The notes under the pieces were generated by a model. It made no database searches and was not told the origin of the DNA. It was given only the letters and a program-made list of their open reading frames with translations. 64,000 nt of DNA, taken from NCBI GenBank assembly GCA_001819435.1, contig MHMT01000003.1:5797-69796 (forward strand). Reading direction: 5' to 3'. The translations under genes and the position numbers were made by a program. This DNA comes from Candidatus Portnoybacteria bacterium RBG_13_40_8 (GTDB taxonomy: Bacteria > Patescibacteriota > Minisyncoccia > RBG-13-40-8-A). This document shows, in pieces, positions 343 through 40,042 of the stretch (the stretch's first letter is position 1; each line of letters opens with the position of its first letter).

Positions 343-1067
343 ATAACTTTATTCTTTTCAAAAACACACACCAGGGCTTGTCCATAATTTTTAAGAACCG
401 GGATTTTACAGAAAAAATTGGTAATTTTATAAATTATATTATTAGTGAACCAAAACTTGGGGAACCCATAGAGATGCAGTGGCGGGAACAAAGTATTTGC
501 CCGTGACTTCAAGAGTTTGAATCCGCACCTTTCTACTAGGGCGATCCATTGTTTTGGAGAATGACTTTGATTGTGCGCATCGGGATTCCATTTATAACCT
601 TTTTCGTTTTTATTTTTTATCCATGGTTTAAAATGTTTAATCATCGAGGCAAGATTTCTGTATTTGTCATACATGGTTGAGAAGGTTATTAAAAATTTAC
701 CGTCACCCTTTAATAATCTATTTGCTTCAAGGCATAATTTTTCGGGATTTTGGACGTGTTCTATAACATCTATCGCTATTGCCTTATCAAAACTTTTGTC
801 GGGAAAGGGGATTTCTTCAATATTTGCACAAAGCGTTTCGTAATTATCAATATTATAAATTTTCATTATTTCTTTTGATTTTTCGAGCCTTTCCTTGCTG
901 ATGTCAACTCCAATCATTTTTTTATAATGTCCAGCATAAACAATGGCCTGTGGACCTTCTCCGCATCCAATATTTATAACTAAATCATTTTTATCAAAAG
1001 GAAACAAATCCAAATAAACCCTTCCAGAAATAATTTTACTTTTTAAAAACTTAAATTCATCTTCCAT
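339..1067 (-). CDS. class I SAM-dependent methyltransferase
   Basis: Motif I VINIGCGEGPQA and post-motif II DVIEHV are typical of Methyltransf_11/23 family. Confidence 0.65.
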   Translation of the reverse strand: MEDEFKFLKSKIISGRVYLDLFPFDKNDLVINIGCGEGPQAIVYAGHYKKMIGVDISKERLEKSKEIMKIYNIDNYETLCANIEEIPFPDKSFDKAIAIDVIEHVQNPEKLCLEANRLLKGDGKFLITFSTMYDKYRNLASMIKHFKPWIKNKNEKGYKWNPDAHNQSHSPKQWIALVERCGFKLLKSRANTLFPPLHLYGFPKFWFTNNIIYKITNFFCKIPVLKNYGQALVCVFEKNKVI

Positions 1068-1106
1068 AAATTTACAGTATAATCAATAGTAATAATAACA
1101 AAATCA

Positions 1107-2177
1107 ATGAAAATTTGCTACATTCTTCCCGAATATAATCAAAATACGGATTCGCATTTTTATCACCATTATGAACGCCTGGAAAAACTTTCCGATAGAT
1201 TGGATGTTTTTTTAATTGCCGAAAAAGGCAGCCATACAAAAGGAAAAATCTTAAACATGAAGCGATTTTATATTCAAAAATTTAAATTTCTACCCTTTAG
1301 ATTTTTGGAAAACTTTTTTATAATTTTGCGGGCCAGGATGCTTGGCTATAAGAAATTTTATACTCATATTTCCTATATTAGTGCTATTAATGCCGCGATT
1401 ATTTCCAGGTTATTTGGCGGGACATCTTATTATTGGAATTGTGCGATGAATTGGTTATTTAAACAAAGAACATTATCTGGTTGGGGATACAAATTGAGCA
1501 TGAAATTGTCCCATTATCTAGTAACCGGAAGCGAAGAAATGAAAAAGGGATACGCTGAACATTATAATTTGTCTTTGAATAAAATTAAGGTTTTGCCGAA
1601 TTGGATTAACCTTAATAGATTTAAAGTTAAAGAACAAATCCCGAAAGTTAAAAACACTTTATTGTTTGTTCATTGGTTGTCAAAAAGGAAAGGAGCAGAT
1701 ATGCTGGTCCCAATCATGAATAATTTAAAATTTAAAATTAAAAATTTAAAATTAATGGTCATCGGTGAGGGACCCTATAAAAACAAATTGATAGACGAGA
1801 TAAAAGACAATGGATTGGAAAAACAAATAAATGTGTTGGGAATGGTGCCCAATAAAGAAATAGCAGATTATTATAATCGAACCGATGTCTTAATCATGCC
1901 TTCAATGGAAGAAGGATTCCCTAGGGTTTTATTGGAAGCAATGGCCTCCGGTATTCCTTATGTTGCTTCTGACGTTGGTGCGGTAAGAGAAATATCTCCG
2001 GAGATCGCCCAAAGATTTTTGGTTAAGGCGGGGGATACGGAAATGTTTGCCCATAAGATAGAAAATCTGATTTTAGACGAAGAGTTGTACCTTAATTTTA
2101 GAAAAGACGGGCTCGAAAAAGTTAAAGAATTTTCTTTGGATAACGCAATTAACAAATTTATTGAATTTTTTGTATGA
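1107..2177 (+). CDS. GT4-family glycosyltransferase
   Basis: C-terminal EEGFPRVLLEAMASGIPYVASDVGA matches the GT4 retaining-GT signature. Stop overlaps the next start (ATGA). Confidence 0.7.
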   Translation: MKICYILPEYNQNTDSHFYHHYERLEKLSDRLDVFLIAEKGSHTKGKILNMKRFYIQKFKFLPFRFLENFFIILRARMLGYKKFYTHISYISAINAAIISRLFGGTSYYWNCAMNWLFKQRTLSGWGYKLSMKLSHYLVTGSEEMKKGYAEHYNLSLNKIKVLPNWINLNRFKVKEQIPKVKNTLLFVHWLSKRKGADMLVPIMNNLKFKIKNLKLMVIGEGPYKNKLIDEIKDNGLEKQINVLGMVPNKEIADYYNRTDVLIMPSMEEGFPRVLLEAMASGIPYVASDVGAVREISPEIAQRFLVKAGDTEMFAHKIENLILDEELYLNFRKDGLEKVKEFSLDNAINKFIEFFV

Positions 2178-3595
2178 AAATCATACTTACAACCTCGCCG
2201 AGAGCTGAAGGAGACGTAGAGAGAAAGGGTTTGCCCTTTTTAGGCATCGGCTATATTGCTGGTTATGTGGAAAAATTCAGTCATCATCAGATTGAGATTT
2301 TCGATGCCCATACTTACGGATTGAACGCTTCTCGGGCAGCAGAAAAAATATTAGAGAGAAAACCGGACGTGGTTGGGATTCACTCGATTACCGATAATAG
2401 ATTTAAAGCCATAGCCCTGGCAAAAGAACTAAAAAAAAGAAATAAAAATGTTATTGTATTGATGGGTGGTCCGCATTTTTCTCTGACCGCGAAAAATGCC
2501 CTAGAGATTGTTCCGGAAATAGATTTTATAATCAAAGGAGAAGGAGAAAAATCGGTTGTCCAATTTCTCAATATTTTGGAAAATAAAGGCGATATTTCCG
2601 AGGTTTCGGGATTGGCTTACAGAACAAAAAGCGGCGAAATTATGGAAAAGCCTTTAACCGATTTGATAATGAATCTCGATGAACTTCCAATGCCCGCCTG
2701 GCACCTGTTTGATTTAAAGGAATATAATAAGCCCATAGATGGTACAAATGTTCGTTCTATAGGCGTTTTAAGCGCCAGGGGATGTCCAAATGTGTGCGTT
2801 TACTGTGCTAATGCTAGATCAGTATTAAGATTAAGAAGCCCGAAAAATTTTGTTGACGAAGTTGAATATTTGTACAAGACATATGGCTATAAGGGTTTTG
2901 ATTTTTGGGATGATACTTTGACCATGGTTAACATTCATGTGGTTGAAATTTGTAAGAAAATTATAGAAAGAAAACTGGATATTGTCTGGTATGCCCGAGC
3001 CAGAGTAAATACGGTTGATAAAAAATTATTAGAGTTAATGAGAAAAGCTGGGTGCATCAGAATTAGTTTTGGCGTTGAGTCGGGAAGTCCGAGAATTTTA
3101 AAAATCATCAAGAAAAATATCACTATTGATCAGGTCAAAAATGCGGTTAGATGGTCCTCCGAAGCGGGCATGGCCGTGATGACTAATTTTATGGTCAACT
3201 TACCAGACGAAACACTTGATGATTTGAAACAGACAATCGACTTAATGAAATGGCTTAGACAAATTAAAAATTCTTATCCTGCCTACGGTTTTACGGTTAT
3301 TTATCCGGGCACAGAATTGGAATTAATGGCAAAAGAAAAAGGATTAATGCCCAAGGATTTTTCCTGGAACAGTCCCTATGAGTCTCCGAAATACAAGGTA
3401 ACCGGTACCGACCCTTCCTTATTTTATATGGAATGGCCGGGCGCCGAACTGGAAAAAATTAAAGCAATAATGACAAAAGAATTGGGAATCAGGGGCAACA
3501 TAATGAAAAAAGGATTTAATAAATTGATAAAAATAAGGTCTATCAGAGAATTAAAAGAATTACTCAGAGCGGGAGTAAATTATTTTAAAAAATGA
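2174..3595 (+). CDS. B12-binding-domain radical SAM enzyme (class B rSAM)
   Basis: N-terminal Rossmann-like B12-binding region (VVGIHSITDN...VLMGGPHFS). Radical-SAM cysteine triad GCPNVCVYC. Also FGVESGS motif. Confidence 0.75.
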   Translation: MKIILTTSPRAEGDVERKGLPFLGIGYIAGYVEKFSHHQIEIFDAHTYGLNASRAAEKILERKPDVVGIHSITDNRFKAIALAKELKKRNKNVIVLMGGPHFSLTAKNALEIVPEIDFIIKGEGEKSVVQFLNILENKGDISEVSGLAYRTKSGEIMEKPLTDLIMNLDELPMPAWHLFDLKEYNKPIDGTNVRSIGVLSARGCPNVCVYCANARSVLRLRSPKNFVDEVEYLYKTYGYKGFDFWDDTLTMVNIHVVEICKKIIERKLDIVWYARARVNTVDKKLLELMRKAGCIRISFGVESGSPRILKIIKKNITIDQVKNAVRWSSEAGMAVMTNFMVNLPDETLDDLKQTIDLMKWLRQIKNSYPAYGFTVIYPGTELELMAKEKGLMPKDFSWNSPYESPKYKVTGTDPSLFYMEWPGAELEKIKAIMTKELGIRGNIMKKGFNKLIKIRSIRELKELLRAGVNYFKK

Positions 3596-4782: not shown

Positions 4783-6582
4783 ATGTGTGGAATAAATGGA
4801 TTTTCCGCCCTGGGCGGATCGGCCTCGGGCCGAAATAAAGAATTGATTGAAAGAATGAATAAAAAAATCCAGCATCGGGGGCCGGATGATGAAGGGTTTT
4901 ATTTAGATAATTATATTTCGTTGGGACATCGACGACTTTCAATTATTGATTTATCCGAAAAGGGACGACAACCGATGTTCAATGAAGACAAATCGCTCGT
5001 CCTGATTTTTAATGGTGAGATTTACAATTTTCAGGAGTTACGCAAGGAATTGGAAAATAAAGGTCATAAATTTTGTTCTAAAAGTGACAGCGAAGTTATT
5101 CTTCATCTTTATGAAGAACACAAAGAGGATTGCCCAAAATTTTTAAATGGAATATTTGCTTTTGCGGTCTGGGATAAGCGGAAAAAGGAACTGTTTTTGG
5201 CACGAGACAGAATCGGTGTTAAGCCCCTATATTATTATTTCAAAGATAATAAATTCATCTTTTCGTCTGAAATTAAGGCTATTTTAGAGCACGACATTAA
5301 GCGAGAAATTGACCTAGAAGCATTTAATCATTATTTTAGACTAATGTACGTCCCGGCGCCGTTAACGATGTTTAAAGGCATTTATAAGCTCCCACAGGCA
5401 CATTATTTGAGGTTGCGGGGCGAACAGATAGAAATCAATAGATATTGGAATATTCAAGATTTCAAGGAAATAAACTCTAAACAAGAAATTATTGACAAAA
5501 TTCAAGATTTAATGAGAAAATCAGTCCAAGGTCAGCTTTTGTCAGATAGGCCGGTTGGAGTGTTTTTGAGCGGTGGCATTGATTCAACTTCTGTTTTGGG
5601 AATTGTTAAAGAATTGACGCAAGGTAAAATTAAAACATTCTCGGTGGGTTTTGACATAGAAGATCCTAATAATAAATTCAATGCTGATCTAAAAATAGCC
5701 CGAGAAACAAGCAAATTTTACAATACCGAACATCATGAGCTTATAATTAAAAGTGAAGATATTTTAAATAATTTGGAAAAAGTAATTTATTATTTGGATG
5801 AACCGATTGCCGAGCCCACGCAAACTGCGACCTTTTTGCTTTCGGAAATGGCAAAAAAAGAAGTAGCGGTAGTTTTGGGCGGAGACGGGGGAGATGAATT
5901 ATTCGGCGGATATAAAAGATATTATTATAGTTATTTTTTAGATAAGTATAAATTTATAAGATTTTTTCCATTTTTAAAAACAAAAGTTTATTTTAAATTT
6001 ATGTCGCAAAAAGAGAAAGAAGTCGGTAAGATTTTAAATAAGGGCATAAACAACAAAAAAATAACTCAGCAATATTTTAAAAGAAACTATTTCAAAAATA
6101 GTAAATCAAAATATACAAATCAGTTTATGTTAACAGATTTAAAAACCTGGCTTGCGGACGAATCATTAATGCGTTCTGATAAAATGGCGATGGCTAATGG
6201 TTTAGAGGAGCGAGTTCCTATTTTAGACCATCAATTAGTAGAATTATCCGTAAAAATACCCAGCAGGTATAAAATGTTGAACAAGGATCAGGGCAAGGCG
6301 ATTTTTATTGAGGCAATGAAAAAATATTTGCCAGAACACGTACTGAGATCAGAGAGAAAAAAGGTTTGGATGACTCCAGCCTCGCAATGGTTAAGGGGGA
6401 ATCTAAATCAAAAAGCAAGGGAAATTCTATCTTCGGATTATTTCCTGGAAAATAAAAAATATTTTAATTTCGACGGCGTTCAAAAAATGTTTAATGATCA
6501 TATTGAAAAAAGAAAATATAACCTTAATTTGATTTGGGCTCTAATTACTTTTCAAATCTGGTCCAAAAATACTCACAGATGA
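4783..6582 (+). CDS. asparagine synthase (glutamine-hydrolysing) family amidotransferase
   Basis: N-terminal MCGI nucleophile (Ntn-GATase class II) and the SGGIDS PP-loop. In glycan loci this family amidates uronic acids (WbpS-like). Confidence 0.8.
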   Translation: MCGINGFSALGGSASGRNKELIERMNKKIQHRGPDDEGFYLDNYISLGHRRLSIIDLSEKGRQPMFNEDKSLVLIFNGEIYNFQELRKELENKGHKFCSKSDSEVILHLYEEHKEDCPKFLNGIFAFAVWDKRKKELFLARDRIGVKPLYYYFKDNKFIFSSEIKAILEHDIKREIDLEAFNHYFRLMYVPAPLTMFKGIYKLPQAHYLRLRGEQIEINRYWNIQDFKEINSKQEIIDKIQDLMRKSVQGQLLSDRPVGVFLSGGIDSTSVLGIVKELTQGKIKTFSVGFDIEDPNNKFNADLKIARETSKFYNTEHHELIIKSEDILNNLEKVIYYLDEPIAEPTQTATFLLSEMAKKEVAVVLGGDGGDELFGGYKRYYYSYFLDKYKFIRFFPFLKTKVYFKFMSQKEKEVGKILNKGINNKKITQQYFKRNYFKNSKSKYTNQFMLTDLKTWLADESLMRSDKMAMANGLEERVPILDHQLVELSVKIPSRYKMLNKDQGKAIFIEAMKKYLPEHVLRSERKKVWMTPASQWLRGNLNQKAREILSSDYFLENKKYFNFDGVQKMFNDHIEKRKYNLNLIWALITFQIWSKNTHR

Positions 6583-7250
6583 AAATACTTCCTAAAATTT
6601 TAGAAAAAACAGGATTAGATTCCAAGATTACCAGACGACATCTGGATGATTTTATTAAAAATCACCGAAGTAACGGTCTAACCCTGGATATTGGTTGTGG
6701 AAATTCTCCTTATGCCGATTATTTTCCAAATAGAATTGGATTAGACACGGCAAAGAGAGAAAAAGTTGATATTGTGGCCAGTGTTTATAAACTGCCCTTT
6801 CCTGATGAAAAATTTGATAATATTTTATGCACAGAAGTTTTAGAGCACTTACATTCTCCCAGGGAAGCTATCGAAGAAATGGCGCGGGTTTTAAAAAAGG
6901 GAGGAATTTTAATATTATCCACCAGGTTTTTATTTCCTCTTCACGATATTCCGGATGATTATTATAGATTTACCAAATACGGCTTGAGATACCTATTCAG
7001 AAATTGGGAAATTTTGGAGTTGAAGGAAGAAGCGAAAACATTAGAAACTATTGCCGTTTTGACGCAAAGGATCGGTTATCAATGCAGAGGCCCAATTTTA
7101 AAGCCATTAAAACTATTAATATTCGGTATAGCAAAAATCATTCCATTATTTTCTTTTTTGATTAAAAAGGAGTATGGAGATATAAGTAAAACAAAATTAG
7201 AGAAAAATATAATGACCTCTGGTTATTATTTAGTCGCTAAAAAGAAATGA
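6579..7250 (+). CDS. class I SAM-dependent methyltransferase
   Basis: Motif LDIGCGNSPY plus EVLEHL. Start chosen at the ATGA overlap with the asnB-like stop (MKILPK...). Confidence 0.65.
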   Translation: MKILPKILEKTGLDSKITRRHLDDFIKNHRSNGLTLDIGCGNSPYADYFPNRIGLDTAKREKVDIVASVYKLPFPDEKFDNILCTEVLEHLHSPREAIEEMARVLKKGGILILSTRFLFPLHDIPDDYYRFTKYGLRYLFRNWEILELKEEAKTLETIAVLTQRIGYQCRGPILKPLKLLIFGIAKIIPLFSFLIKKEYGDISKTKLEKNIMTSGYYLVAKKK

Positions 7251-7300
7251 AGAAGGAAAATAAAAAAAATTGCTATTTCGGTTTCTATGAATAACGGTTT
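7137..7300 (+). repeat. copy A of a duplicated gene-junction segment (MT 3' end + GT 5' start)
   Basis: About 105 bp near-identical to 9023-9127, then decaying similarity for ~60 bp more. Confidence 0.8.
7247..7294 (+). pseudogene. 15-codon remnant of a glycosyltransferase N-terminus (MKKENKKNCYFGFYE*)
   Basis: ATGA overlap with the methyltransferase stop. CYFGFYE matches the N-terminus (CYFGFYEPDF) of the intact GT at 12253. Confidence 0.5.
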
Positions 7301-7325
7301 GGGCTTGGTTCGTAGTTTTAAAATA

Positions 7326-7352
7326 AAAAGACAGCAATTACTGTCTTTTTAT
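7326..7352. terminator. bidirectional intrinsic terminator
   Basis: AAGACAG-caatta-CTGTCTT hairpin flanked by an A-run and a T-run, between convergent genes. Confidence 0.65.
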
Positions 7353-7387
7353 TGTTTGTCAGCGCTGAGCTTGATTATTGTTTTTTC

Positions 7388-8908
7388 TTAAGAAAATTTG
7401 AGAACCTTGTTTTTTAGGAATAAACGGAATCGATTCAGCTTTATTAATAGACGGAGTAAAAATCGACTAAAAATATTTTCCTCATAGCAGACCTGAAATA
7501 GTGGATAAAGTATTTCGGAGTAATGTAAGTAAAAATAGCTCATTTTCCTAATGCCATTCAATTCTTTTTGACTTATTTGAGGCATTTTTAAAATCGTTTT
7601 TGACATATCACTTCGCGCAGGTTTGATTTCTTCTTCAGATGCATAACCTTCTTTGACGGCCGTATCTCCCAATGGCGTGCCTCGATAAGGGAAAAACATT
7701 GAGATATTGGCAAGAGAAGGCCTTGCCTTTTTTAAGAGACGGAAGGTATCAAAAATCATCTCTTTCGTTTCGTAGGGCATCCCCATCATGTTAAGTGCTG
7801 CGACTCTGATTCCTTCTTCTTTCAGGATTCTTACCTTTTCGATATAGGTCTCGTCTGTATAGTCCCTTTTGAGTATGTTTTTCCTGAACTCGTAATTTCC
7901 CGATTCGAGAGCCATCGAGATGCTTGCACAGTTCATTTTCTTTAATAATTTAGCCTTTTCTCTAGTCACAGTATGGGGATGAGCATGGGAAGTAAATGGC
8001 ACATTTACTTCTTTTTGGTAAAGTTCTGACAGTCGGGCAAAATCATCAACATTTCTTAGGAGCATGTCTTCAGAAAATATCTTAAAAAATTTCAGGTCAT
8101 AGGTCTTTGTTAGAAATTTCATCTCTTCGACAAATCTTTCGGGAGAGAAAAATCTAACCCTTCCTATGGGGTATAGTTCATTAAGCACCGAGTTTGCGCA
8201 GTAAGGACATCGCCGTGGACACCCTCTGATATCTTGGACATCGCCACTTTTAATAATTTTTCCTTCAAAGGGTCGTAAAAACTGCCTTGGATCATAGATG
8301 GAATAGTCTAAAAATGGCAGTTTATTGATATCTTTTAGCGGTCTTACGGGGTTCTTGTGTACAATGTCATTCTTTTTTATCCATAAATTTTGGATGTCCG
8401 TTCGCGTGATATTACTACCTGAGATGGCATCGACAAATTCTAGGATTGCTTCTTCACCTTCGCCAACACAGAGTGCGTCAATACAATCTTCCGCAATTAC
8501 CTCATCTGGTAAAGTCGTTGCATGAATTCCCCCCATGATAATGGGAATGTCGTAATTATCCTTGGCAATCTTGAGAAAGTCGATAGTGTGAGAATACATG
8601 TCTGACATGCAGCTTGCAGCAATAAGATCTGGGCGCTCTTTTTTAATCAGGTTCAGAAAGACTGATTTGGCATTGATGCTTTTATCTCTCACAAGGTTGT
8701 ATTTTCCCCAATCAACCTTTTTATACTGCATGACCGAATCCGAGACTTCACCGTCTAGGGGAAAGCCGAGGTCCATGAATGTGGTGTCAAAATAGACCAC
8801 TTCGTGACCTTTCGACTTAAGGATAGCCGACAATAATGAGGTGGCAAGGGGCTTGGCACCTGCCGATGACCCCCCAATCGATGTGAGTAATACTTTTTTC
8901 ATAATCAT
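7388..8908 (-). CDS. B12-binding-domain radical SAM enzyme
   Basis: CPRRCPYC radical-SAM motif with an N-terminal B12-binding-like domain. Close paralog of the enzyme at 32822-34399. Confidence 0.75.
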   Translation of the reverse strand: MIMKKVLLTSIGGSSAGAKPLATSLLSAILKSKGHEVVYFDTTFMDLGFPLDGEVSDSVMQYKKVDWGKYNLVRDKSINAKSVFLNLIKKERPDLIAASCMSDMYSHTIDFLKIAKDNYDIPIIMGGIHATTLPDEVIAEDCIDALCVGEGEEAILEFVDAISGSNITRTDIQNLWIKKNDIVHKNPVRPLKDINKLPFLDYSIYDPRQFLRPFEGKIIKSGDVQDIRGCPRRCPYCANSVLNELYPIGRVRFFSPERFVEEMKFLTKTYDLKFFKIFSEDMLLRNVDDFARLSELYQKEVNVPFTSHAHPHTVTREKAKLLKKMNCASISMALESGNYEFRKNILKRDYTDETYIEKVRILKEEGIRVAALNMMGMPYETKEMIFDTFRLLKKARPSLANISMFFPYRGTPLGDTAVKEGYASEEEIKPARSDMSKTILKMPQISQKELNGIRKMSYFYLHYSEILYPLFQVCYEENIFSRFLLRLLIKLNRFRLFLKNKVLKFS

Positions 8909-9004
8909 AGATTAACAATTTATATTCAAAGGGTCAATATAATTGAAGCTTAAAAAGATAAAGGGTATAATAATTATTGAGTTTCAGAAGAAAGAAAAAA
9001 TAAC

Positions 9005-9136
9005 ATGAAAAAGCTATCTATTATCATTCCATTATTTTCTTTTTTGATTAAAAAGGAGTATGGAGATATAAATAAAACAAAATTAGAGAAAAATATAATG
9101 ACCTCAGTTTACTATTTAGTCGCTAAAAAGAGATGA
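9005..9136 (+). pseudogene. 43-codon remnant of a methyltransferase C-terminus
   Basis: IIPLFSFLIKKEYGDINKTKLEKNIMTSVYYLVAKKR is ~90% identical to the C-terminus of the methyltransferase at 6579-7250. Lies within the duplicated segment. Confidence 0.55.
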
Positions 9137-9205
9137 ATAAAAGCAAGGAAAATAAAAAAAATCAAAATCTGTTATTTTGGTTTCTACGAACCCGGGTTCT
9201 CTAGA
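9023..9205 (+). repeat. copy B of the duplicated gene-junction segment
   Basis: Direct repeat of 7137-7300. Together the two copies bracket the minus-strand radical-SAM gene at 7388-8908. Confidence 0.8.
9133..9204 (+). pseudogene. frameshifted remnant of a glycosyltransferase N-terminus
   Basis: ATGA overlap with the methyltransferase remnant. An alternate frame encodes KICYFGFYEPGFSRNEVYIKGLRENG, homologous to the N-terminus of the GT at 12253. Confidence 0.5.
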
Positions 9206-9268
9206 AACGAAGTATACATTAAGGGCTTGAGAGAAAATGGATAGGAAATATATAAAATAAATTTTTAT

Positions 9269-10651
9269 ATGAAAATTTTTATATTAAATCCACCGATTTA
9301 TTCTAAGAAAAAGTCAATAATGAACGTTAGGCCAAGACAACCGCTAAGTTTGGCTTATATTACTAGCTTACTTTTAAAAAAAAGCTACGAAGTTAATTTG
9401 TTTGACGCTAATGTCATGGGTTATAAAACGGACCGGACTATAAAAGAAATTGAAGATTATCATCCAGATATTTTAATTTTAACCTCAACCCCAATTGATA
9501 GGTGGGAATGCCCAAATTCTCATATAGATTCGATTTTCGAGATTATTAATAAAAGTCGGATAAATCCGACAATTTTAACTGGTTCCCATGGTTCATTGAC
9601 CCCTGATTGGATTTTTAAAAAATGTAGTGTTCAGTATATTGTTCGGTGCGAACCAGAAATGACGGTTTTAAATCTAATAGAAGCTCTGGTAAAAAAAGAA
9701 GACATTAAAAAGATTAGAGGGATTTCTTATAAGATTGGTAGTAAGGTCATTAACAATGAAGATGCTGCCCGGATAGAAAATTTAGATAATTTACCCTTGC
9801 CAGCTTACCATTTATTGCCAATGAATAAATACAGATACGGTTTTCCCGAACTGTCTCCGCCATTTACAATTATGTTAACTTCGCGAGGCTGTCCATTTAA
9901 TTGCATTTTTTGTTTGAAAGTAATGTCTAAAGGAAAATATATTACCAGAAGTTCGGAGAACGTCATCAAAGAAATAGAATACTTGATTGATAATTTCAAA
10001 ATTAAATCAATTTTCTTTCAGGACTGGGAATTTACAATTAATAAAGAGAGGGTAAAAAAAATTTGTGATTTGATTTTAAAGAAAAATTTAAGAATTATTT
10101 GGGGTTGTAATGCTCGGGCAAATGATTTATCATATGAATTAGTTGAAAAAATGAAGAAAGCTGGTTGCGTTAGAGTTAATATTGGATTTGAGTCGGGCTC
10201 GCAGAAGATTTTAGACAATATTAATAAAGGTATTAAAGTTGGGGACCTGGAGAATGCAGTGGAAATTTGCAGAAAAAATAATATTAATATTGGAATGTAT
10301 GCTATGTTAAATTTGCCTGGAGAAAACAAAGAAACGATAAAAGAAACCGTTGATTTTTTTGCCCAAAATAAGATTGAGTCAATGACACTAAATTTAGCAA
10401 TTCCTTATTTTGGAACTCCACTTTTTGAGAGATTAAAAACGGCTAATAAAAAAACCAATTTTAATTGGGACAATATTGAGGAATATGCCGGGAAAATAGA
10501 TGTCGAACAAAGCCCAAGGGCAGCCCGTTTATATTATCGGCATTTTAAATTTAAGAATAAATTTGGCTTTTTTTATTTTTTCCACCCAGGATTTTGTAAG
10601 TGGGCAATAAGATTTATAAAGAACAAAATTAAGAAATATATAAAAAAATAA
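9269..10651 (+). CDS. B12-binding-domain radical SAM enzyme
   Basis: GCPFNCIFC motif, IGFESGS motif, and an N-terminal B12-binding-like domain. Confidence 0.75.
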   Translation: MKIFILNPPIYSKKKSIMNVRPRQPLSLAYITSLLLKKSYEVNLFDANVMGYKTDRTIKEIEDYHPDILILTSTPIDRWECPNSHIDSIFEIINKSRINPTILTGSHGSLTPDWIFKKCSVQYIVRCEPEMTVLNLIEALVKKEDIKKIRGISYKIGSKVINNEDAARIENLDNLPLPAYHLLPMNKYRYGFPELSPPFTIMLTSRGCPFNCIFCLKVMSKGKYITRSSENVIKEIEYLIDNFKIKSIFFQDWEFTINKERVKKICDLILKKNLRIIWGCNARANDLSYELVEKMKKAGCVRVNIGFESGSQKILDNINKGIKVGDLENAVEICRKNNINIGMYAMLNLPGENKETIKETVDFFAQNKIESMTLNLAIPYFGTPLFERLKTANKKTNFNWDNIEEYAGKIDVEQSPRAARLYYRHFKFKNKFGFFYFFHPGFCKWAIRFIKNKIKKYIKK

Positions 10652-10660
10652 ATAGATAAC

Positions 10661-12106
10661 ATGATTGTTTTACTTCAAATCAATTATTCTAAATATCAGT
10701 CCGAGATAGATTTTCCTTTGGGGATTTTGTCTGTTGGAAGCGCCTTGAAAAAGGCAGGTTTTGAGGTAAAATTGTTTAATATTACTGAAAATAATATTAA
10801 TGAAACAGTTGATGAAATTATTACCTTATCCCCAGAATTTTTAGGTGTATCTGTAATGACTGGTATCCAAACTAAACATAGCGCTGAGTTTTGTCAGAAA
10901 ATAAAAAAGAAGAAAAATAATCTCACAATTGTTTGGGGGGGGATTCACCCATCACTGTTGCCAGAACAATGTTTGCAGGAAAGTTATATAGATTATGTTG
11001 TTATAGGAGAAGGGGAAATAACAATTATAGAATTTATCAGGAGATTAAGGAATGGCGATGGCTTTGATGATGTGGCTGGTTTGGGTCATAAAAAAAATGG
11101 AAAAGTCATAATTAACAGATCTCGAGACCTTATAGAGAATTTAGATAAATATAGATTAGATTTTAGCCTTATTGATGTTGAAAAGTATATCTTTAAACCA
11201 AGGGGCGCTAAGCGAACAATGGTCTATAAGGCGAGTAGGGGCTGTACTTTTAATTGCGCCTTTTGTTATAATAAGATTTTTAATAGGGGTCGTTGGCGAG
11301 CTTGGTCAGTTGATGCAGTGGTTGAAGATATTGATTTTTTAAAGAAAAATTACGGAGTGAACGCCATTCAATTTTATGACGACAACTTCTTCATTAATCA
11401 ACAGAGGGCCTTAGAGATCTTAGAGAGGGTTGATTTGCCAAGTCACGTAGAAATCAGGATAGATATGATTACTGACGACCTGGCTCAGAAGCTAAAGAAA
11501 TTAAAAGTTGACAAGCTTCTAATTGGTATAGAGTCAGGTAGCAATAGGATGTTGAAGTTGATTAATAAGGGCTATACAGTAGATAGGATTCAAAAAGGTA
11601 TAAAGATTTTGGCAAAATACGATCTTTACACCACTTATTCTACAATTGTGGGTTTGCCCACAGAAACCAAAGAAGAGTTTAATAAAACACTTGATTTAAT
11701 ATATTGGATTCGCAAAATACATCCGCGGTCCGGATTCAATTTGGGTACTTACTTGCCTTATCCTGGCTCTTTAATGTATCAGTTTGCTATTGAACAAGGG
11801 TTTAAGCCACCGCAAAGAACAGAGGACTGGGGAAGTATTGATAGATTTAGAAAAGATTTTTCATCTCCTTGGGTAGATAGTAAAAAAGTTTGGTGGATCA
11901 GGGAGTATTTAAAAATTTTTAATTATAAGATTGGTTTATTGAATAAATGGTTAGAATTCAGGATAAAAAGCAGATTTTTTAGTTTCCATTTGGATGCTTA
12001 TATCATTAAGCGTTTGGCGGGATTGGCCATTGAAGAAAAGGGGATTATTGGTAAGATTTTAAGGAAAATTCATTCTCTAATTAAAAAATTCAAATCAGGT
12101 CCATAA
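10661..12106 (+). CDS. B12-binding-domain radical SAM enzyme
   Basis: GCTFNCAFC motif, IGIESGS motif, and an N-terminal B12-like domain (VIGEGE). Confidence 0.75.
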   Translation: MIVLLQINYSKYQSEIDFPLGILSVGSALKKAGFEVKLFNITENNINETVDEIITLSPEFLGVSVMTGIQTKHSAEFCQKIKKKKNNLTIVWGGIHPSLLPEQCLQESYIDYVVIGEGEITIIEFIRRLRNGDGFDDVAGLGHKKNGKVIINRSRDLIENLDKYRLDFSLIDVEKYIFKPRGAKRTMVYKASRGCTFNCAFCYNKIFNRGRWRAWSVDAVVEDIDFLKKNYGVNAIQFYDDNFFINQQRALEILERVDLPSHVEIRIDMITDDLAQKLKKLKVDKLLIGIESGSNRMLKLINKGYTVDRIQKGIKILAKYDLYTTYSTIVGLPTETKEEFNKTLDLIYWIRKIHPRSGFNLGTYLPYPGSLMYQFAIEQGFKPPQRTEDWGSIDRFRKDFSSPWVDSKKVWWIREYLKIFNYKIGLLNKWLEFRIKSRFFSFHLDAYIIKRLAGLAIEEKGIIGKILRKIHSLIKKFKSGP

Positions 12107-12252
12107 AGACGTTCAAAAATACACTCAAATGATTAAAAAAGTTTTTTCGAGAGAAGTATTTTAGAAATATACCCACTTAATAAAAATTTTGAGCTATCCT
12201 TGATTTATGTTTTTAAAAAGCAGTAATAGAAATTTATAAAATAAATCATTAA

Positions 12253-13371
12253 ATGATAAATAAAGAAAACAATCCCAAAAAACTAACAGTTTGTTATTTT
12301 GGATTTTACGAACCTGACTTTTCCAGAAACCAGGTTTATATTGACGGATTAAAGAAAAACGGAGTCGAAGTAGTTGAATGTAATGACTTTTCTAAATCTA
12401 AATTTTTGAAATACCGGAATCTCTATCGCGAACACTGGAAAATTAGAAAAAAATATGACTTAATGATTGTAAGCCACATATGGAGAACTACAAATCTTTC
12501 AGACCACTTTGCTGTTCCTTTTGCGAAATTGATCTCTAGAAAAAAAATTATCCACAACGCAATGTGTTCGAACTATGAAGCCGCTATTTTATGTCGCGAG
12601 GTGGCAAAACAAGGTTCTTTTAGGGCAAAACTATACTGGATGGCCGATTATCTGGCTTGTCACTACGCCTCCCTGATTTTAGTCGAAACTGAAGAACAAA
12701 AAAAATTCTATATTAAGAATTTTAAAATCAATGAAAAAAAATGTATAAGAATGTGGACCGGAGCAAACGATAAAGATTTCTTTATTGAGCCAGTTAATAA
12801 AAACGAAAAATTTACAGTTGTACTTAGGGGTGGGCTTTTGCCAGAAACAGGCATCGAATACGTGCTTAAGGCTGCTAAAAAATTAGAAGACGAAGGTGTT
12901 AATTTTTTGATATTGGGCTGGGCAAAAACAGAAAAAATTGAAAAAAATATTGAAGAAATTATGAGAAACAAAGGCCCTAAAAATTTAAAATTTATTACCG
13001 AATATCTCCCACTTGAAAATTTAAGAAAAACCATGCTATCCCATCATGCTAGTTTGGGTCAATTTGGAAATCATGAAAGAATTGAAAGAACAATTCCCCA
13101 CCGAGCATTTGAAAGCCTGGCTCTCGGCTTACCATATATAACTGCTGAGGCGGCTGGAGTTAAAGAATTACTAACCAATAGAGTAAATTGTTTGTTTGTC
13201 AAACGAGCTAACCCCAACGATCTTGCTGAAAAAATACTAGAACTAAGGGATAGCCCAGAATTAAGAAAAAAAATAGCCGAAAACGGCTATAAATTGTATA
13301 AAGAAAAATTAACTCCCAAGGTTCTGGGAGAAGAATTATTGAGTATTTGTCATCGCCTTATTAAAAACTAA
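12253..13371 (+). CDS. glycosyltransferase (GT4-like C-terminal domain)
   Basis: ESLALGLPYITAEAAGVKELL and RKKIAENGY. Its N-terminus matches the two remnant fragments. Confidence 0.55.
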   Translation: MINKENNPKKLTVCYFGFYEPDFSRNQVYIDGLKKNGVEVVECNDFSKSKFLKYRNLYREHWKIRKKYDLMIVSHIWRTTNLSDHFAVPFAKLISRKKIIHNAMCSNYEAAILCREVAKQGSFRAKLYWMADYLACHYASLILVETEEQKKFYIKNFKINEKKCIRMWTGANDKDFFIEPVNKNEKFTVVLRGGLLPETGIEYVLKAAKKLEDEGVNFLILGWAKTEKIEKNIEEIMRNKGPKNLKFITEYLPLENLRKTMLSHHASLGQFGNHERIERTIPHRAFESLALGLPYITAEAAGVKELLTNRVNCLFVKRANPNDLAEKILELRDSPELRKKIAENGYKLYKEKLTPKVLGEELLSICHRLIKN

Positions 13372-14538
13372 CAAAGTTTTTTTAGCTGTATTCTCCCAGG
13401 TAAAAGTATCTGCTTTTTGCCGGCCCTTACTTATCAATTGTTCTCGTAAATCGTAATTTAAGAGAACTTTTTTTATACATTCAACAAGTTTTTCTAAATT
13501 ATTGGTCTCGAATAATAATCCGGCATCTCCCACAATCTCGTCGATGCTGGTATTGTTAGCCGCCACAACAGGTAATTCGTGCTCGAATGCTTCTACGATA
13601 GGCAAGCCAAAACCCTCAAAAGAGGAGGGGAAAACCAGCGCTCCTGCTTTTTGATAAATGTAATTTAATTGTTTATCCGGTATATAGCCCAAAAATAATA
13701 CTTTTTTTGACAATCCATAGAGTTTGATTAAGTCGTCAATTTCTTTTTTTACTTTTTCATTTTTTATTATCCCCGTAAGCACTAAGTTCAAATCAGGAAA
13801 TTCATATTTTAATTTATTTAGGGCTTCTATTAATATTTTGTGGTTTTTGTGTGGCCAAAATGTGGCCGGATAAAAGATAAAATTCTTGGGTAGCGAAATA
13901 GCGCCTTTTTCATTTTTTTTATTATCAGCGCCCAAATAAATAGTGGTAATCTTGTTGGGATTAATTTTATATTTTTCTATAATGGTTTTTTTAGTGTAAT
14001 CGGAAATTGCAATAATGTGATTTGAATTTAAAACAGAATATCGATATTCTGTTTTTCTGTGTTCTAGTATATTGCTGGAAAAATTCTTTGGAAAATATTC
14101 ATGCTGCAAATCATATATTGTGGTAATTATTTTAACGTTCTTTATTCCCTTGGGATAAATAATCATTGCCGGGAAAAATAATATATCTATATTTTTTTTA
14201 TTTATCAAAGATTGAATTTCCTTTGTCATTATTTTTTCTTTGGCTAAGTCATTGTTTTTTATTTTTGTAATCAATTTCAAAAAAGCCCTTACAGGATTGA
14301 ATATAAAATCGCGGCGGATATCAATAATTTTTAGTTTAACATTTTTATTTTTTCTGTATCTTTTTTTAAGATATTTATAATTGTATAAATTTATTAAGAG
14401 ACAGTATTTACTGTCTTTATCAATATTAAAAAGATTATCAAGAAGGTTCTGTATATAAACAAAACTACCCGTGCCATTCGGGCGCAATACCCACAAAAGA
14501 TTAATGGCTATATTTTTATTTTTAATATGATCTTTCAT
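13336..14538 (-). CDS. GT4-family glycosyltransferase
   Basis: EGFGLPIVEAFEHELPVVAANNTSIDEIVGDAG is a GT4 signature. Confidence 0.7.
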   Translation of the reverse strand: MKDHIKNKNIAINLLWVLRPNGTGSFVYIQNLLDNLFNIDKDSKYCLLINLYNYKYLKKRYRKNKNVKLKIIDIRRDFIFNPVRAFLKLITKIKNNDLAKEKIMTKEIQSLINKKNIDILFFPAMIIYPKGIKNVKIITTIYDLQHEYFPKNFSSNILEHRKTEYRYSVLNSNHIIAISDYTKKTIIEKYKINPNKITTIYLGADNKKNEKGAISLPKNFIFYPATFWPHKNHKILIEALNKLKYEFPDLNLVLTGIIKNEKVKKEIDDLIKLYGLSKKVLFLGYIPDKQLNYIYQKAGALVFPSSFEGFGLPIVEAFEHELPVVAANNTSIDEIVGDAGLLFETNNLEKLVECIKKVLLNYDLREQLISKGRQKADTFTWENTAKKTLLVFNKAMTNTQ

Positions 14539-15773
14539 TGATTTTTAACAAACTTATTCATAATTTCTTTGTACACTCTTTCAGAAGAATTTGAGTCAAC
14601 ATATTTATGGATTAATTTTTGGCAATTACTAATTTTTTTTGAGCATTCCTTCATAAAATCCTCTTTGTTGTTCATATAATTATCTAGGGCATTCAATAAA
14701 GCATCAAAAGTTTTTACTATCGGTCCAAGCACCAGGTTTTCAAAATCTTCATATAACGTCCGGTGTTCTGTTTTGTATTCCTTCAGATCATACCAATAGA
14801 AAATAATCGGCTTTGAACATAAAAGAAAATTATAACATACCGTGGAATAATCCGTTATAAGAATATCAACGTATTTTAAGGCTGGAAAAATATCATTTAA
14901 ATTATTTGGGGTTAGAATGTTTTTACAAGAATAAGGAATCTGCAAGGTTGATTCTTTAACAGGATGTAATTTTACAATAAAAACACTGTTATTTTTTTCT
15001 AAAAATGAATTCAGCTTTTCCCAATTAATTGGAACATCCATTGATTTCGACTCATAAATTCTGACGTCTCTATAGGTTGGCATATATAGGATGACTTTCT
15101 TTTTATGTGCTTTAAGGCTCTTGATTAATTTTAAGTCCTCGTCGATAAAAGGGTTTTCAACGTTTTTTAAGAGCGTATCATTACATGGATACCCCGTCAC
15201 AACAACATCTCCTGCCCTTTTGCCGAAGGCGCTTTTCATGCATTTTTTTGTCATTTCTGAAATGCAAATCATCATATCATATTTTTCATATTCCCAGGGA
15301 TTAAAAAATCTATTTCTTAACCGCTGTAAGATATCGTCGTGATACAATTTATAGAAATAGTTATTTTTTAAATCCGAATCCAATCCAATTTTCTTAATCC
15401 CTACGCCGTGCCATAAATTTATCTTCTTAGCCCCACGAGAAAGAAAATAACTGATATCGTAATTTGTATGTACATTAAAAATATATATTCCCCCTCGCAC
15501 AGCATAATAATAACCTTTCGGAGAATTTAAATAATATGCTTCAAATCCTTTTGCTTGCAACATTTCGACAATTTTTTTAGTTCTTGATATCCAAATTTTC
15601 CTAATATTCTTTTTATTAGAATTATGTAAATATAAAAATAACCATTTTGAATTACCAAAAAAAGTTTTATTCCTTGAACCAAAAATCCAGATTTTCCGGT
15701 CCCTTGGAATAAATCCTACAAAAAAATATATCATATGCAACAAAAGATGTTTTATTATAGTTTTTATGCGCAT
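14535..15773 (-). CDS. CDP-glycerol glycerophosphotransferase family (TagB/TagF-like)
   Basis: ILYMPTYRD and LITDYSTVCYNFLL match conserved TagF-family motifs. Start trimmed to MRIKT (TAATG overlap with the upstream stop). Confidence 0.55.
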   Translation of the reverse strand: MRIKTIIKHLLLHMIYFFVGFIPRDRKIWIFGSRNKTFFGNSKWLFLYLHNSNKKNIRKIWISRTKKIVEMLQAKGFEAYYLNSPKGYYYAVRGGIYIFNVHTNYDISYFLSRGAKKINLWHGVGIKKIGLDSDLKNNYFYKLYHDDILQRLRNRFFNPWEYEKYDMMICISEMTKKCMKSAFGKRAGDVVVTGYPCNDTLLKNVENPFIDEDLKLIKSLKAHKKKVILYMPTYRDVRIYESKSMDVPINWEKLNSFLEKNNSVFIVKLHPVKESTLQIPYSCKNILTPNNLNDIFPALKYVDILITDYSTVCYNFLLCSKPIIFYWYDLKEYKTEHRTLYEDFENLVLGPIVKTFDALLNALDNYMNNKEDFMKECSKKISNCQKLIHKYVDSNSSERVYKEIMNKFVKNQ

Positions 15774-38267: not shown

Positions 38268-38516
38268 TTACCACTTTTTGATTTTGTTTTTTATATTCTT
38301 TTTCAGTTTTTGATAAACTGCCACTGCCTTCCTTTCAACTTTAGGAGAGACCAGTCTCAGGATTTCTTTCCCTAAAATCCTGTATTGCCCCCCGACTTTA
38401 TTTGCCTTGATAATGCCATTCTTAAGAAGGCGTTTTATGGTGCTGTCGCTCACTTTCAAAATTTCTTTAGTTTCGTTGGTGGTATATATTGAGTTTGGAT
38501 TTACTTCTTTTTCCAT
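38268..38516 (-). CDS. small helix-turn-helix DNA-binding protein (excisionase/MerR-type HTH_17)
   Basis: ILKVSDSTIKRLLKNGIIKANKVGGQYRI resembles the Xis/MerR N-terminal HTH. 82 aa. Confidence 0.5.
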   Translation of the reverse strand: MEKEVNPNSIYTTNETKEILKVSDSTIKRLLKNGIIKANKVGGQYRILGKEILRLVSPKVERKAVAVYQKLKKNIKNKIKKW

Positions 38517-38629: not shown

Positions 38630-40042
38630 TTATCTTCCTCCTCCGCGGAGAACAATGTTAATTGTTTTTAAAATAATACCTAAATCTAAAACAAAAGAAC
38701 GATTTTTAACATAAAAAAGGTCATACTGAAGCTTCTCAAAATTGCCTTCTATTGATGATGTGTAGCCGTGTTTAATTTGGGCCCAACCGGAAAGACCCGG
38801 TTTTATCAAGTATCTTTCCTGATAGAATGGTATTTTGGATTTAAGTTCTTGATGGAATTCCGGTCTTTCTGCTCGGGGTCCGACAAAACTCATTTTCCCT
38901 TTAATTATATCCCAAAGCTGTGGCAGTTCGTCTAGCCTGGCTTTTCTTAGAAATTTTCCGAATTTGGTTATTCTGGGGTCGTTTTTCTGGGCCATTTTCG
39001 GTCCATCTTTTTCTGCATCTATAATCATTGAACGGAATTTAAAGAGATTAAAGGGTCTTCCGCCTTGACCCACTCTGGTTTGTTTGTAAAATATCGGTCC
39101 AGGTGATTCGAATTTTATAATCAGCGCAATTATAGTCCAGAAAGGAAGTGACAAAATCAAAAATAAAAAAGCAAAGAAAAAATCAAAAATCCTTTTACTA
39201 ATTTCATAGAGATTTTTTTCTCTTTGAGATATATTTTCCAGAAACCAGACCTGATTAATGGCGGTCAAGGGAATTCGTTGGGCGACTTTTTCATAAAATT
39301 CCGAAAGATTTACAAAATCAATTTTATAACGAATACACTCGAAAAGATTTTGGATTAAATCTGGAGAATGATATATCTCTGGAGCTACTACGACCACGGC
39401 AATTTTTTCTTGTTCCAATAACTCTTTTAAGTTTTTTATTCCCTCGGTTATTTTAATTTCTGGAAAATCGGTTTTATCTATTTCCTCATGGTTTTTAATA
39501 ATTAGTTTTAACCTATATCCAAGTTGCGGATTTTTGATTATTTCTTTTGCCAATTCTATTGCCTGAAGATTATAGCCGACAATGGCAGTATTCATCCTAA
39601 GTTTTATGGATCCGGCCAAGAAATTAAACAGATGTCTCCAAGTATAAAACAGAACAATGAATACCAGAACATTTAAAAATAAATTTGTTTTAGGCGTGAT
39701 TGCGCCAAAAGCAAAATTTGGAACAAGGTAGAAGAATATTACCGAAATCAGGCCGCTAATTATCAGAGCGCGAATAAGGGCAGAGGAGAATTCTACATTA
39801 TTTTTAGCAATATCTAATTCATAAAGATTATGAATATAGAATATAATTAACCAGATAATGTAGATTATCGAAAAGGGTAAAAGATGTTTTTCAAAAATAT
39901 TAAAATCAAATGCTCGATAACGAATTGTCAAAGCAATAACCAAAGAAGCATACAAAATAAGTATGTCTCCAATTAAAAGAATGAATTTTTTGATTTTCAT
40001 TTTCTTAATTTTAATGATATTATATTTATACGTAATTGACAA
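38630..40042 (-). CDS. polyprenyl-phosphate sugar phosphotransferase (WbaP/PglC/EpsL 'bacterial sugar transferase' family), initiating enzyme
   Basis: C-terminal domain KRIFDFFFAFL...SPGPIFYKQTRVG...PFNLFKFRSM is the family signature. N-terminal TM segments. Confidence 0.8.
   Translation of the reverse strand: MSITYKYNIIKIKKMKIKKFILLIGDILILYASLVIALTIRYRAFDFNIFEKHLLPFSIIYIIWLIIFYIHNLYELDIAKNNVEFSSALIRALIISGLISVIFFYLVPNFAFGAITPKTNLFLNVLVFIVLFYTWRHLFNFLAGSIKLRMNTAIVGYNLQAIELAKEIIKNPQLGYRLKLIIKNHEEIDKTDFPEIKITEGIKNLKELLEQEKIAVVVVAPEIYHSPDLIQNLFECIRYKIDFVNLSEFYEKVAQRIPLTAINQVWFLENISQREKNLYEISKRIFDFFFAFLFLILSLPFWTIIALIIKFESPGPIFYKQTRVGQGGRPFNLFKFRSMIIDAEKDGPKMAQKNDPRITKFGKFLRKARLDELPQLWDIIKGKMSFVGPRAERPEFHQELKSKIPFYQERYLIKPGLSGWAQIKHGYTSSIEGNFEKLQYDLFYVKNRSFVLDLGIILKTINIVLRGGGR

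Follow-up and report, generated by a model that had tools for sequence, protein, structure and literature searches.

The stretch of DNA analysed here, 64,000 nucleotides (nt) from Candidatus Portnoybacteria bacterium RBG_13_40_8 (hereafter the window), belongs up to ~45 kb to a single glycan-biosynthesis region, in which Pfam identifies several Glycos_transf_1/GT4 genes together with Glyphos_transf, Bac_transf, Wzy_C, epimerases and CTP_transf_3. Within this region we describe a direct repeat made of a gene junction: the tail of a methyltransferase gene (MT), an ATGA in which its stop overlaps the next start, and the head of a glycosyltransferase gene (GT). The two copies of this junction lie on either side of a radical S-adenosylmethionine (SAM) gene, rSAM1, on the opposite strand. 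We consider it likely that the duplicated junction was left behind by recombination, as a scar in a mosaic cluster of genes for a cell-surface glycan. The left flank and the features at the repeat are the following.

4783 to 6582, plus strand: AsnB-type asparagine synthase (Pfam Asn_synthase and GATase), the conserved left flank.
6579 to 7250, plus strand: class I SAM methyltransferase, the intact MT of 223 amino acids (aa) (Pfam Methyltransf_11/23).
7137 to 7291, plus strand: repeat copy A, with the last 37 MT codons and stop, the ATGA and the GT leader as far as CYFGFYE.
7247 to 7294, plus strand: GT stub A, by translation 15 codons, MKKENKKNCYFGFYE, closed by a TAA at the breakpoint.
7322 to 7353, no strand assigned: palindromic hairpin flanked by an A-run and, at its opposite end, by a T-run (93.8% palindrome in self-blastn).
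7388 to 8908, minus strand: rSAM1, a class B (B12-binding) radical SAM protein of 506 aa (Pfam B12-binding and Radical_SAM).
8943 to 8971, plus strand: sigma-70-like promoter match, TTGAAG-17-TATAAT, a match to the consensus only.
9005 to 9136, plus strand: stranded C-terminal remnant of the MT, a 43-codon open reading frame (ORF), MKKLSIIIPLFSFLIKKEYGDINKTKLEKNIMTSVYYLVAKKR and stop, with its own ATG at 9005.
9023 to 9190, plus strand: repeat copy B, the portion alignable to copy A.
9133 to 9244, plus strand: GT stub B, ~37 codons, CYFGFYEPGFSRNEVYIKGLRENG, closed by a TAG at the breakpoint, with the leader of the MT-coupled GT of the type found in the related locus L095.

A repeat search of the window returned an ungapped direct repeat of 133 nt at 90% identity between 7137-7269 and 9023-9155. 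Self-blastn extended the match to 7137-7291 against 9023-9190 (86.9% identity over 168 columns, 13 of them gap columns; E 2e-53) and ranked it as the top non-self match of the whole window. The repeat had been claimed in a sequence-only reading of this DNA, which proposed self-alignment as a check, and both searches place it where that reading had put it. The MT-coding part (7137-7250 against 9023-9136) is identical at 109 of 114 positions, with five mismatches and a longest exact run of 49 nt, and the copies as a whole are distinguished by 5 substitutions, in the MT tail, and by 13 indel positions. The stop of AsnB overlaps the start of the MT through an ATGA, and the TGA of the MT overlaps an ATG at 7247 in the same manner (7247-7250), an arrangement that copy B retains at 9133-9136. 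Homology to the MT inside the ORF that begins at 9005 starts at 9023. The frame that encodes CYFGFYEPGFSRNEVYIKGLRENG is shifted relative to the ATG at 9133 and stays open to 9244; stub B extends ~22 codons deeper into the GT than stub A and is 72-83% identical at the nucleotide level to the heads of seven members of the GT family. Translation upholds the earlier description of copy A as the true 3' end of the MT followed by a 15-codon GT stub and of copy B as a stranded MT remnant plus a frameshifted GT stub, and Pfam does the same for the minus-strand radical SAM gene between them.

To follow the decay of the two copies, we compared them with seven relatives and with a 27-member alignment of the MT family, which shows a conserved MT tail with G215 and Y216 invariant. 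At all five tail sites that differ, copy A agrees with the nearest outgroups and copy B is derived; three of these five copy B substitutions, small as the numbers are, alter the protein, including a G215V change at the invariant glycine. Moreover, the similarity of copy B to every relative is 3-4 points below that of copy A. Since the derived sites all fall in copy B and its similarity is lower throughout, copy A is the working 3' end of the MT and is under selection as such, and copy B is drifting and evolves without constraint. The GT leaders have each changed as well. In copy B, one extra A in the A8 run at 9154-9161 causes a +1 frameshift with respect to the intact relatives; in copy A, 12 nt have been lost relative to the relatives, and the frame is open until the TAA at the breakpoint. 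The 7-nt difference between the two copies is a deletion in copy A.

The part of the locus to the right of copy B, which is needed for the comparison with relatives, contains the following features.

9245 to 9268, plus strand: short duplicate of the 3' tail of a gene for a 609-aa membrane protein (EIYKIN...), directly before the ATG of rSAM2.
9269 to 10651, plus strand: rSAM2, class B radical SAM protein of 460 aa (Pfam).
10661 to 12106, plus strand: rSAM3, class B radical SAM protein of 481 aa (Pfam).
12220 to 12252, plus strand: fossil 3' end of the 609-aa membrane-protein gene, AVIEIYKINH and TAA, abutting the ATG of GT12253.
12253 to 13371, plus strand: GT12253, an intact GT (Glycos_transf_1) of the family of the stubs (Pfam and family search).
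13336 to 14538, minus strand: convergent GT4-family glycosyltransferase, the conserved right flank, 86% identical to that of L095 at the amino acid level.

The sequence-only reading had suggested that related genomes be compared for an uninterrupted MT-ATGA-GT junction, and we found this junction in three close relatives (L088, L091 and L095 in our numbering of loci). Their GT leader, MNK[NS]KE[NK]KKIK[IV]C..., corresponds to that of stub B minus one A. In L088, a Logan contig that holds the closest MT homologue (86% aa identity), the MT ends in NIMSSGYYLVVKKK and a stop, followed through the ATGA by MNKNKENKKIKICYFGFYEPNAFRDEVYIEGLKRNG, which remains open to the end of the contig. A pattern scan of JGI metagenomes for an MT tail, a gap and CYFGFYE returned one locus, L091, on a contig of 522.9 kb; it is 88.8% identical to window 5670-7291 and has an intact GT after the ATGA. 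L095 has the order AsnB-MT-ATGA-GT, with a GT of 367 aa, and then a GT4 gene that converges on it from the reverse strand. Its positions 1-890 align to window 6414-7291 and its positions 855-3100 to window 12277-14540, so that the window equals L095 plus ~5 kb (7292-12276) with the three radical SAM genes. The alignments of L088, L091 and L095 all stop precisely where copy A does, at 7291. In the flanks, AsnB is 92-99% identical in nucleotides to L091 and L095 over most of its 3' part, and the GT4 gene overlaps the 3' end of the GT by 36 nt in the window as in L095. An MT-profile scan of one genome per species yielded 80 loci, the best at 69% aa identity, with no GT-head motif after the MT in any of them, and the partial GT of L088, at 57 aa too short a query, retrieved no homologue. 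Together with the polarity of decay, the intact junction of the relatives supports the earlier proposal that the repeat is a fossil of cassette insertion or recombinational shuffling at an MT-GT junction.

GT12253 had been taken for the intact version of the GT in the stubs. The family stands, and so does the position, since GT12253 holds the place of the relatives' MT-coupled GT, but it is not the same GT: it is only 72-74% identical to the stub sequence (74.7% to stub B in nucleotides; 72% in amino acids over 29 residues), and a different fossil lies upstream of it. Its protein shares 71% identity with the GT of the L095 type and 77% with that of the L093 type. The upstream fossil, AVIEIYKINH, matches 10 of 10 residues at the C-terminus of the 609-aa polytopic membrane protein of L092 and resembles the equivalent C-terminus in L093 and L094. 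In these three loci the intact 609-aa gene precedes the GT, and their nucleotide alignments to the window start at 12219-12221. Because this foreign fossil comes from a context in which a 609-aa gene is followed by a GT, GT12253 was imported and was not the original partner of the MT. The original MT-coupled GT is gone, and GT12253 is not the source of the stubs.

The same tail occurs a second time. Positions 9245-9262 code for EIYKIN, and the 24 nt ahead of rSAM2 match the 12220-12252 segment in register with the ATG. When the 28-nt segments upstream of the 1,852 ATGs of the window were compared with the GT12253 leader, the segment before rSAM2 ranked first of 1,851, matching at 21 of 28 positions, with the next best at 18 of 28. 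rSAM2 and rSAM3 are thus bracketed by a duplicated tail of the 609-aa gene, just as rSAM1 is bracketed by the duplicated MT-GT junction.

Sliding-window identity to L095 is 92-97% for 6414-6950 and then falls to 77-81% in the last third of the MT. It stays at 65-83% through GT12253 to ~13220, returns to 89-98% for 13220-13900 and is 71-79% for 13900-14200. The L091 profile shows the same fall at ~6950. This profile implies homologous crossovers inside the conserved MT (~6950) and GT (~13220) genes that delimit a divergent block, and the block of ~6950-13220, which holds both copies of the repeat, is thus a swapped allele. Since copies A and B are mutually closest (96%, against at most 86% to anything else), the duplication arose within the lineage of the divergent block. 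Adjoining the right-hand crossover there is also a 36-nt patch (13258-13293) that is 94% identical to 232-267, at the 3' ends of two GT paralogues whose proteins share 23% identity; it codes for ELRKKIAENGY and may be the trace of a micro-conversion or, alternatively, of biased codon use in a conserved motif.

Which gene is docked on the MT differs among relatives, as loci with more distant MTs show. A homologue of rSAM2 (76% identity in nucleotides and 69% in amino acids) is docked by an ATGA in L085, GT4-type glycosyltransferases are docked with an ATGA overlap in L086 and L087, and the MT is followed by a SPASM-type radical SAM gene in L084 and by an HTH_17 gene in L089/L090. The occurrence of different genes at the identical ATGA, along with the collinearity of L095, bears out the earlier claim that this locus evolves by modular gene swapping. 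As an observation on the fusion itself, the same stop/start overlap joins the MT to at least four unrelated partner genes, and the AsnB-MT junction is likewise an ATGA. Members of the GT family, for their part, are placed after the MT (L088, L091 and L095), after Bac_transf (L096) or after the 609-aa gene (L092-L094). In the window, an HTH_17 gene (38268-38516, minus strand) follows the initiating sugar transferase Bac_transf (38630-40042, minus strand); its homologue is placed after the MT in L089/L090 and after the rSAM2 homologue in L085. From these differing placements of HTH_17, Bac_transf and GT genes, it follows that the large-scale order and orientation of the locus vary between relatives.

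The three inserted radical SAM genes share only 21-29% pairwise aa identity (21-26% for rSAM1 against rSAM2 and rSAM3) and are therefore not recent duplicates of one another. rSAM1 has a GC content of 39.5%, and its third-position GC content (41%) is the highest of 17 genes of the locus, the others being at 22-37%. The bin name RBG_13_40_8 may point to a genome GC content near 40%, in which case the glycan locus as a whole would be AT-rich with respect to its genome. In NCBIfam, none of the four radical SAM proteins compared reaches a named-subfamily cutoff. Immediately outside the window, on its upstream side, there is a paralogue of rSAM3 (L001 1274-2686; 71% aa identity) accompanied by a GT. 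In total, the locus counts five or more radical SAM genes of class B, with B12-binding domains (2174-3595, 7388-12106 and L001 1274-2686). Searches by blastn with the unique flanks of the inserts (7292-7387, 8909-9022 and 12107-12225) found no match in the fetched loci.

Two elements of the insert may bear on transcription. The hairpin at 7322-7353, which lies between the convergent MT and rSAM1 genes, folds at -23.7 kcal/mol with a z of -4.2. It lies where a bidirectional terminator had been proposed (7326-7352) and, with its A- and T-runs, is terminator-like in both directions, which makes it a putative terminator. The putative promoter at 8943-8971 is the best promoter-like match of the region and forms part of the inserted segment, ahead of copy B and of rSAM2-rSAM3. 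Rfam reports no RNA family in the window, and the scar carries no riboswitch or known element. Elsewhere, the GT4 ORF contains a hairpin at 14393-14418 that is 85% identical to the 7323-7348 terminator-like sequence, as well as a perfect 26-nt palindrome at 14030-14055; both lie in the 25% GC part of that ORF, near the 13900-14200 stretch that is 71-79% identical to L095.

Taken as a scar of recombination, the locus would have the following history. The ancestor would have had the order AsnB-MT-ATGA-GT and then a convergent GT4, which close relatives still have. The MT-coupled GT would have been broken, and three unrelated class B radical SAM genes would have come to separate the MT from a replacement GT. 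The rSAM1 module (7292-9022), consisting of the hairpin, the opposite-strand gene and the promoter region, would have been joined in a recombination event, non-reciprocal or illegitimate, in which ~155 nt of the junction were duplicated. One possible route is the single-crossover integration of a circle carrying a fragment of the junction; another is an unequal or illegitimate join of two alternative alleles, each of which started with MT-ATGA-GT head. The differing truncations of the stubs (A at codon 15, B at ~codon 37) slightly favour the join of two alleles. After the join, copy A would have been kept under selection and copy B would have decayed, and a second event of the same type would have left the tails of the 609-aa gene before rSAM2 and before GT12253. 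The divergent block of ~6950-13220 as a whole would be traded between strains through homologous crossovers in the conserved MT and GT genes. With respect to expression, the hairpin would end both the AsnB-MT transcript and the converging rSAM1 transcript, and the site at 8943-8971 would restart transcription into rSAM2-rSAM3, which may keep the split operon expressed.

A different history could leave a similar repeat. If a larger segment with a complete MT-GT pair had been tandemly duplicated, genes had been gained between the copies and deletions had cut the second MT down to its tail and the two GTs down to stubs, rSAM1 would not have been inserted into the junction. Copy B, with a 5'-truncated MT and a 3'-truncated GT, is what such deletions would leave, and the locus has other paralogue pairs, among them the rSAM3 paralogue and GT upstream of the window. 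We nevertheless think segmental duplication followed by decay unlikely: it requires at least three independent deletions ending near gene boundaries, rSAM1 lies on the opposite strand and differs in composition from its neighbours, the 609-aa gene tail is duplicated in the same short-junction-only pattern, and the closest relatives have a single MT-GT pair each. A tandem duplication of the 1,886-bp unit is rejected because copy B runs further into the GT rather than into the terminator-like hairpin. A loss of ~5 kb in the relatives by deletion between GT heads, as the primary direction of change, is also rejected, given that the fragments presuppose an earlier intact junction and that GT12253 has a foreign fossil upstream. 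It would be highly unlikely, in our estimation, that copy B is retained as a co-opted element, either as a 5' leader or translation-coupling ramp for rSAM2-rSAM3 or as a gene for a 43-aa peptide such as a substrate of a B12-radical SAM enzyme. The remnant does have its own ATG (9005) and keeps its ATGA, the best promoter-like site of the region is just upstream, and the radical SAM proteins show weak, sub-threshold NCBIfam similarity to peptide-modifying class B enzymes, a class known to modify peptides in some pathways for ribosomally synthesized and post-translationally modified peptides (RiPPs). Against this, every substitution since the duplication is in copy B, with the protein changes and the lost invariant glycine described above, the GT head that follows the remnant is frameshifted, the rSAM2 homologue of L085 has a full MT and no peptide gene upstream, and the neighbouring genes serve glycan synthesis. 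A RiPP cluster is rejected as well: what the 43-codon ORF encodes is an MT tail in decay, the rSAM2 homologue of L085 has no conserved counterpart of it alongside, and none of the radical SAM proteins reaches an NCBIfam RiPP-family cutoff.

The repeat could also have been created during assembly, through a mis-joined repeat, a chimera of co-existing strains, or a free 1.9-kb circle threaded into the chromosome. The genome is metagenome-assembled, the contig at NCBI breaks off within rSAM1 (window 8545), and a chromosome accompanied by a circle could formally give a segment flanked by repeats. However, the exact match between the copies is at most 49 nt, below the final k-mer length (k) of MEGAHIT (contig prefix k141), and with 5 substitutions and 13 indel positions to tell the copies apart, their pairing is set by sequence that spans them. 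The MEGAHIT contig from ENA (L002) is 100% identical over 15.9 kb that span both copies, and the NCBI contig independently joins the MT body to copy A and to rSAM1. A Logan contig (L003), equal to window 7190-9052, covers both novel junctions; one of its ends reaches 30 nt into the 49 nt of copy B that match exactly, and the other is one base inside the 33-nt exact stretch of copy A at 7187-7219, precisely where a k=31 graph must branch if the reads hold both copies. Because the exact repeat does not reach the length of the largest k, and because variants distinguish the copies, an artefact is unlikely, and we give it next to no credence. We still regard a recombination scar as the probable explanation, and several points should be counted against it. 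The breakpoints show no diagnostic microhomology or mobile-element signature that would point to the mechanism of a duplicative join. The body of stub B is closest to the L092-type GT (83%, over only 72 nt) instead of the L095-type, which makes a simple picture with one ancestor approximate. Among the 96 fetched loci there is no donor of the rSAM1 module and no relative bearing rSAM1, so that the inserted state is seen in one genome only, and the three agreeing assemblies may all derive from one sample.

It is tempting to go further and propose that modules in the glycan loci of candidate phyla radiation (CPR) bacteria carry with them the last tens of bases of a former upstream neighbour, here the MT tail with its ATGA or the 609-aa gene tail, as homology patches for the next insertion. 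This idea, which we hold to be quite improbable, draws on the presence of three such tails within 5 kb and on the four unrelated genes found at the identical MT stop/start in relatives. If true, carried tails would constitute a homology-driven cassette system that is precise at gene boundaries and operates without an integrase.

Among known systems, transposons and insertion sequences (IS) also leave an insert flanked by direct target repeats. They are rejected here on the size of the repeat, which is ~155-168 nt rather than 2-15 nt, on the lack of inverted repeats pairing 7292 with 9022, and on the content of the rSAM1 insert, whose sole gene encodes a radical SAM protein and not a transposase. 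The row of single-gene modules with repeated elements between them is reminiscent of integron cassettes, but the inter-module repeats are fragments of coding genes and not attC sites, and rSAM1 is inverted; no integrase was identified next to the array, in a window that was not exhaustively scanned for one. In Campbell-type integration, a circle enters by a single crossover, and the segment of homology comes to lie, in duplicate, to the left and right of the insert. The rSAM1 module resembles its product in being flanked by direct target repeats, whose length of ~155 nt fits a homology-driven better than a transposase-driven insertion, and recombination between the repeats could reverse the arrangement. 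Unlike in Campbell integration, no circle, integrase or donor was observed here, and because the GT downstream of copy B is truncated, this route needs at least one further event.

The closest parallel is with the O-antigen and capsule clusters. In Salmonella and Escherichia coli, according to Reeves et al. 2013 (PMC3715488) and Liu et al. 2019 (PMC7685785), O-antigen clusters contain gene remnants, partial gene duplications, sharp junctions and gradients of divergence beside the swapped centre, features that have been read as evidence that recombination was recent. Like them, the locus described here is a surface-glycan locus, encoding glycosyltransferases, an initiating sugar transferase and a protein of the polymerase/ligase type, with conserved flanks, a swapped centre and alternative gene sets in relatives; its junctions are sharp, with abrupt shifts in identity and the highest divergence beside them, and truncated gene copies, an unconstrained remnant and a partial duplication remain as footprints. 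It differs from them in its host, an uncultured groundwater member of the CPR/Patescibacteria, in the swapped units, which are class B radical SAM genes, in having crossovers within the MT and GT genes rather than in galF/gnd-type flanks, and in that no IS or H-repeat was seen at the junctions. We conclude that this is an ordinary recombination scar of the O-antigen and capsule kind, in a little-studied CPR lineage, with no new mechanism. In this sense, the locus offers base-level evidence, with the ancestral state known from relatives, that surface-glycan loci of CPR bacteria diversify by block swapping like that of O-antigen and capsule clusters, and it can help to interpret variation between strains, as well as breaks in assembly, in CPR genomes assembled from metagenomes. 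The units traded in this case are B12-dependent radical SAM enzymes with a predicted role in glycan tailoring.

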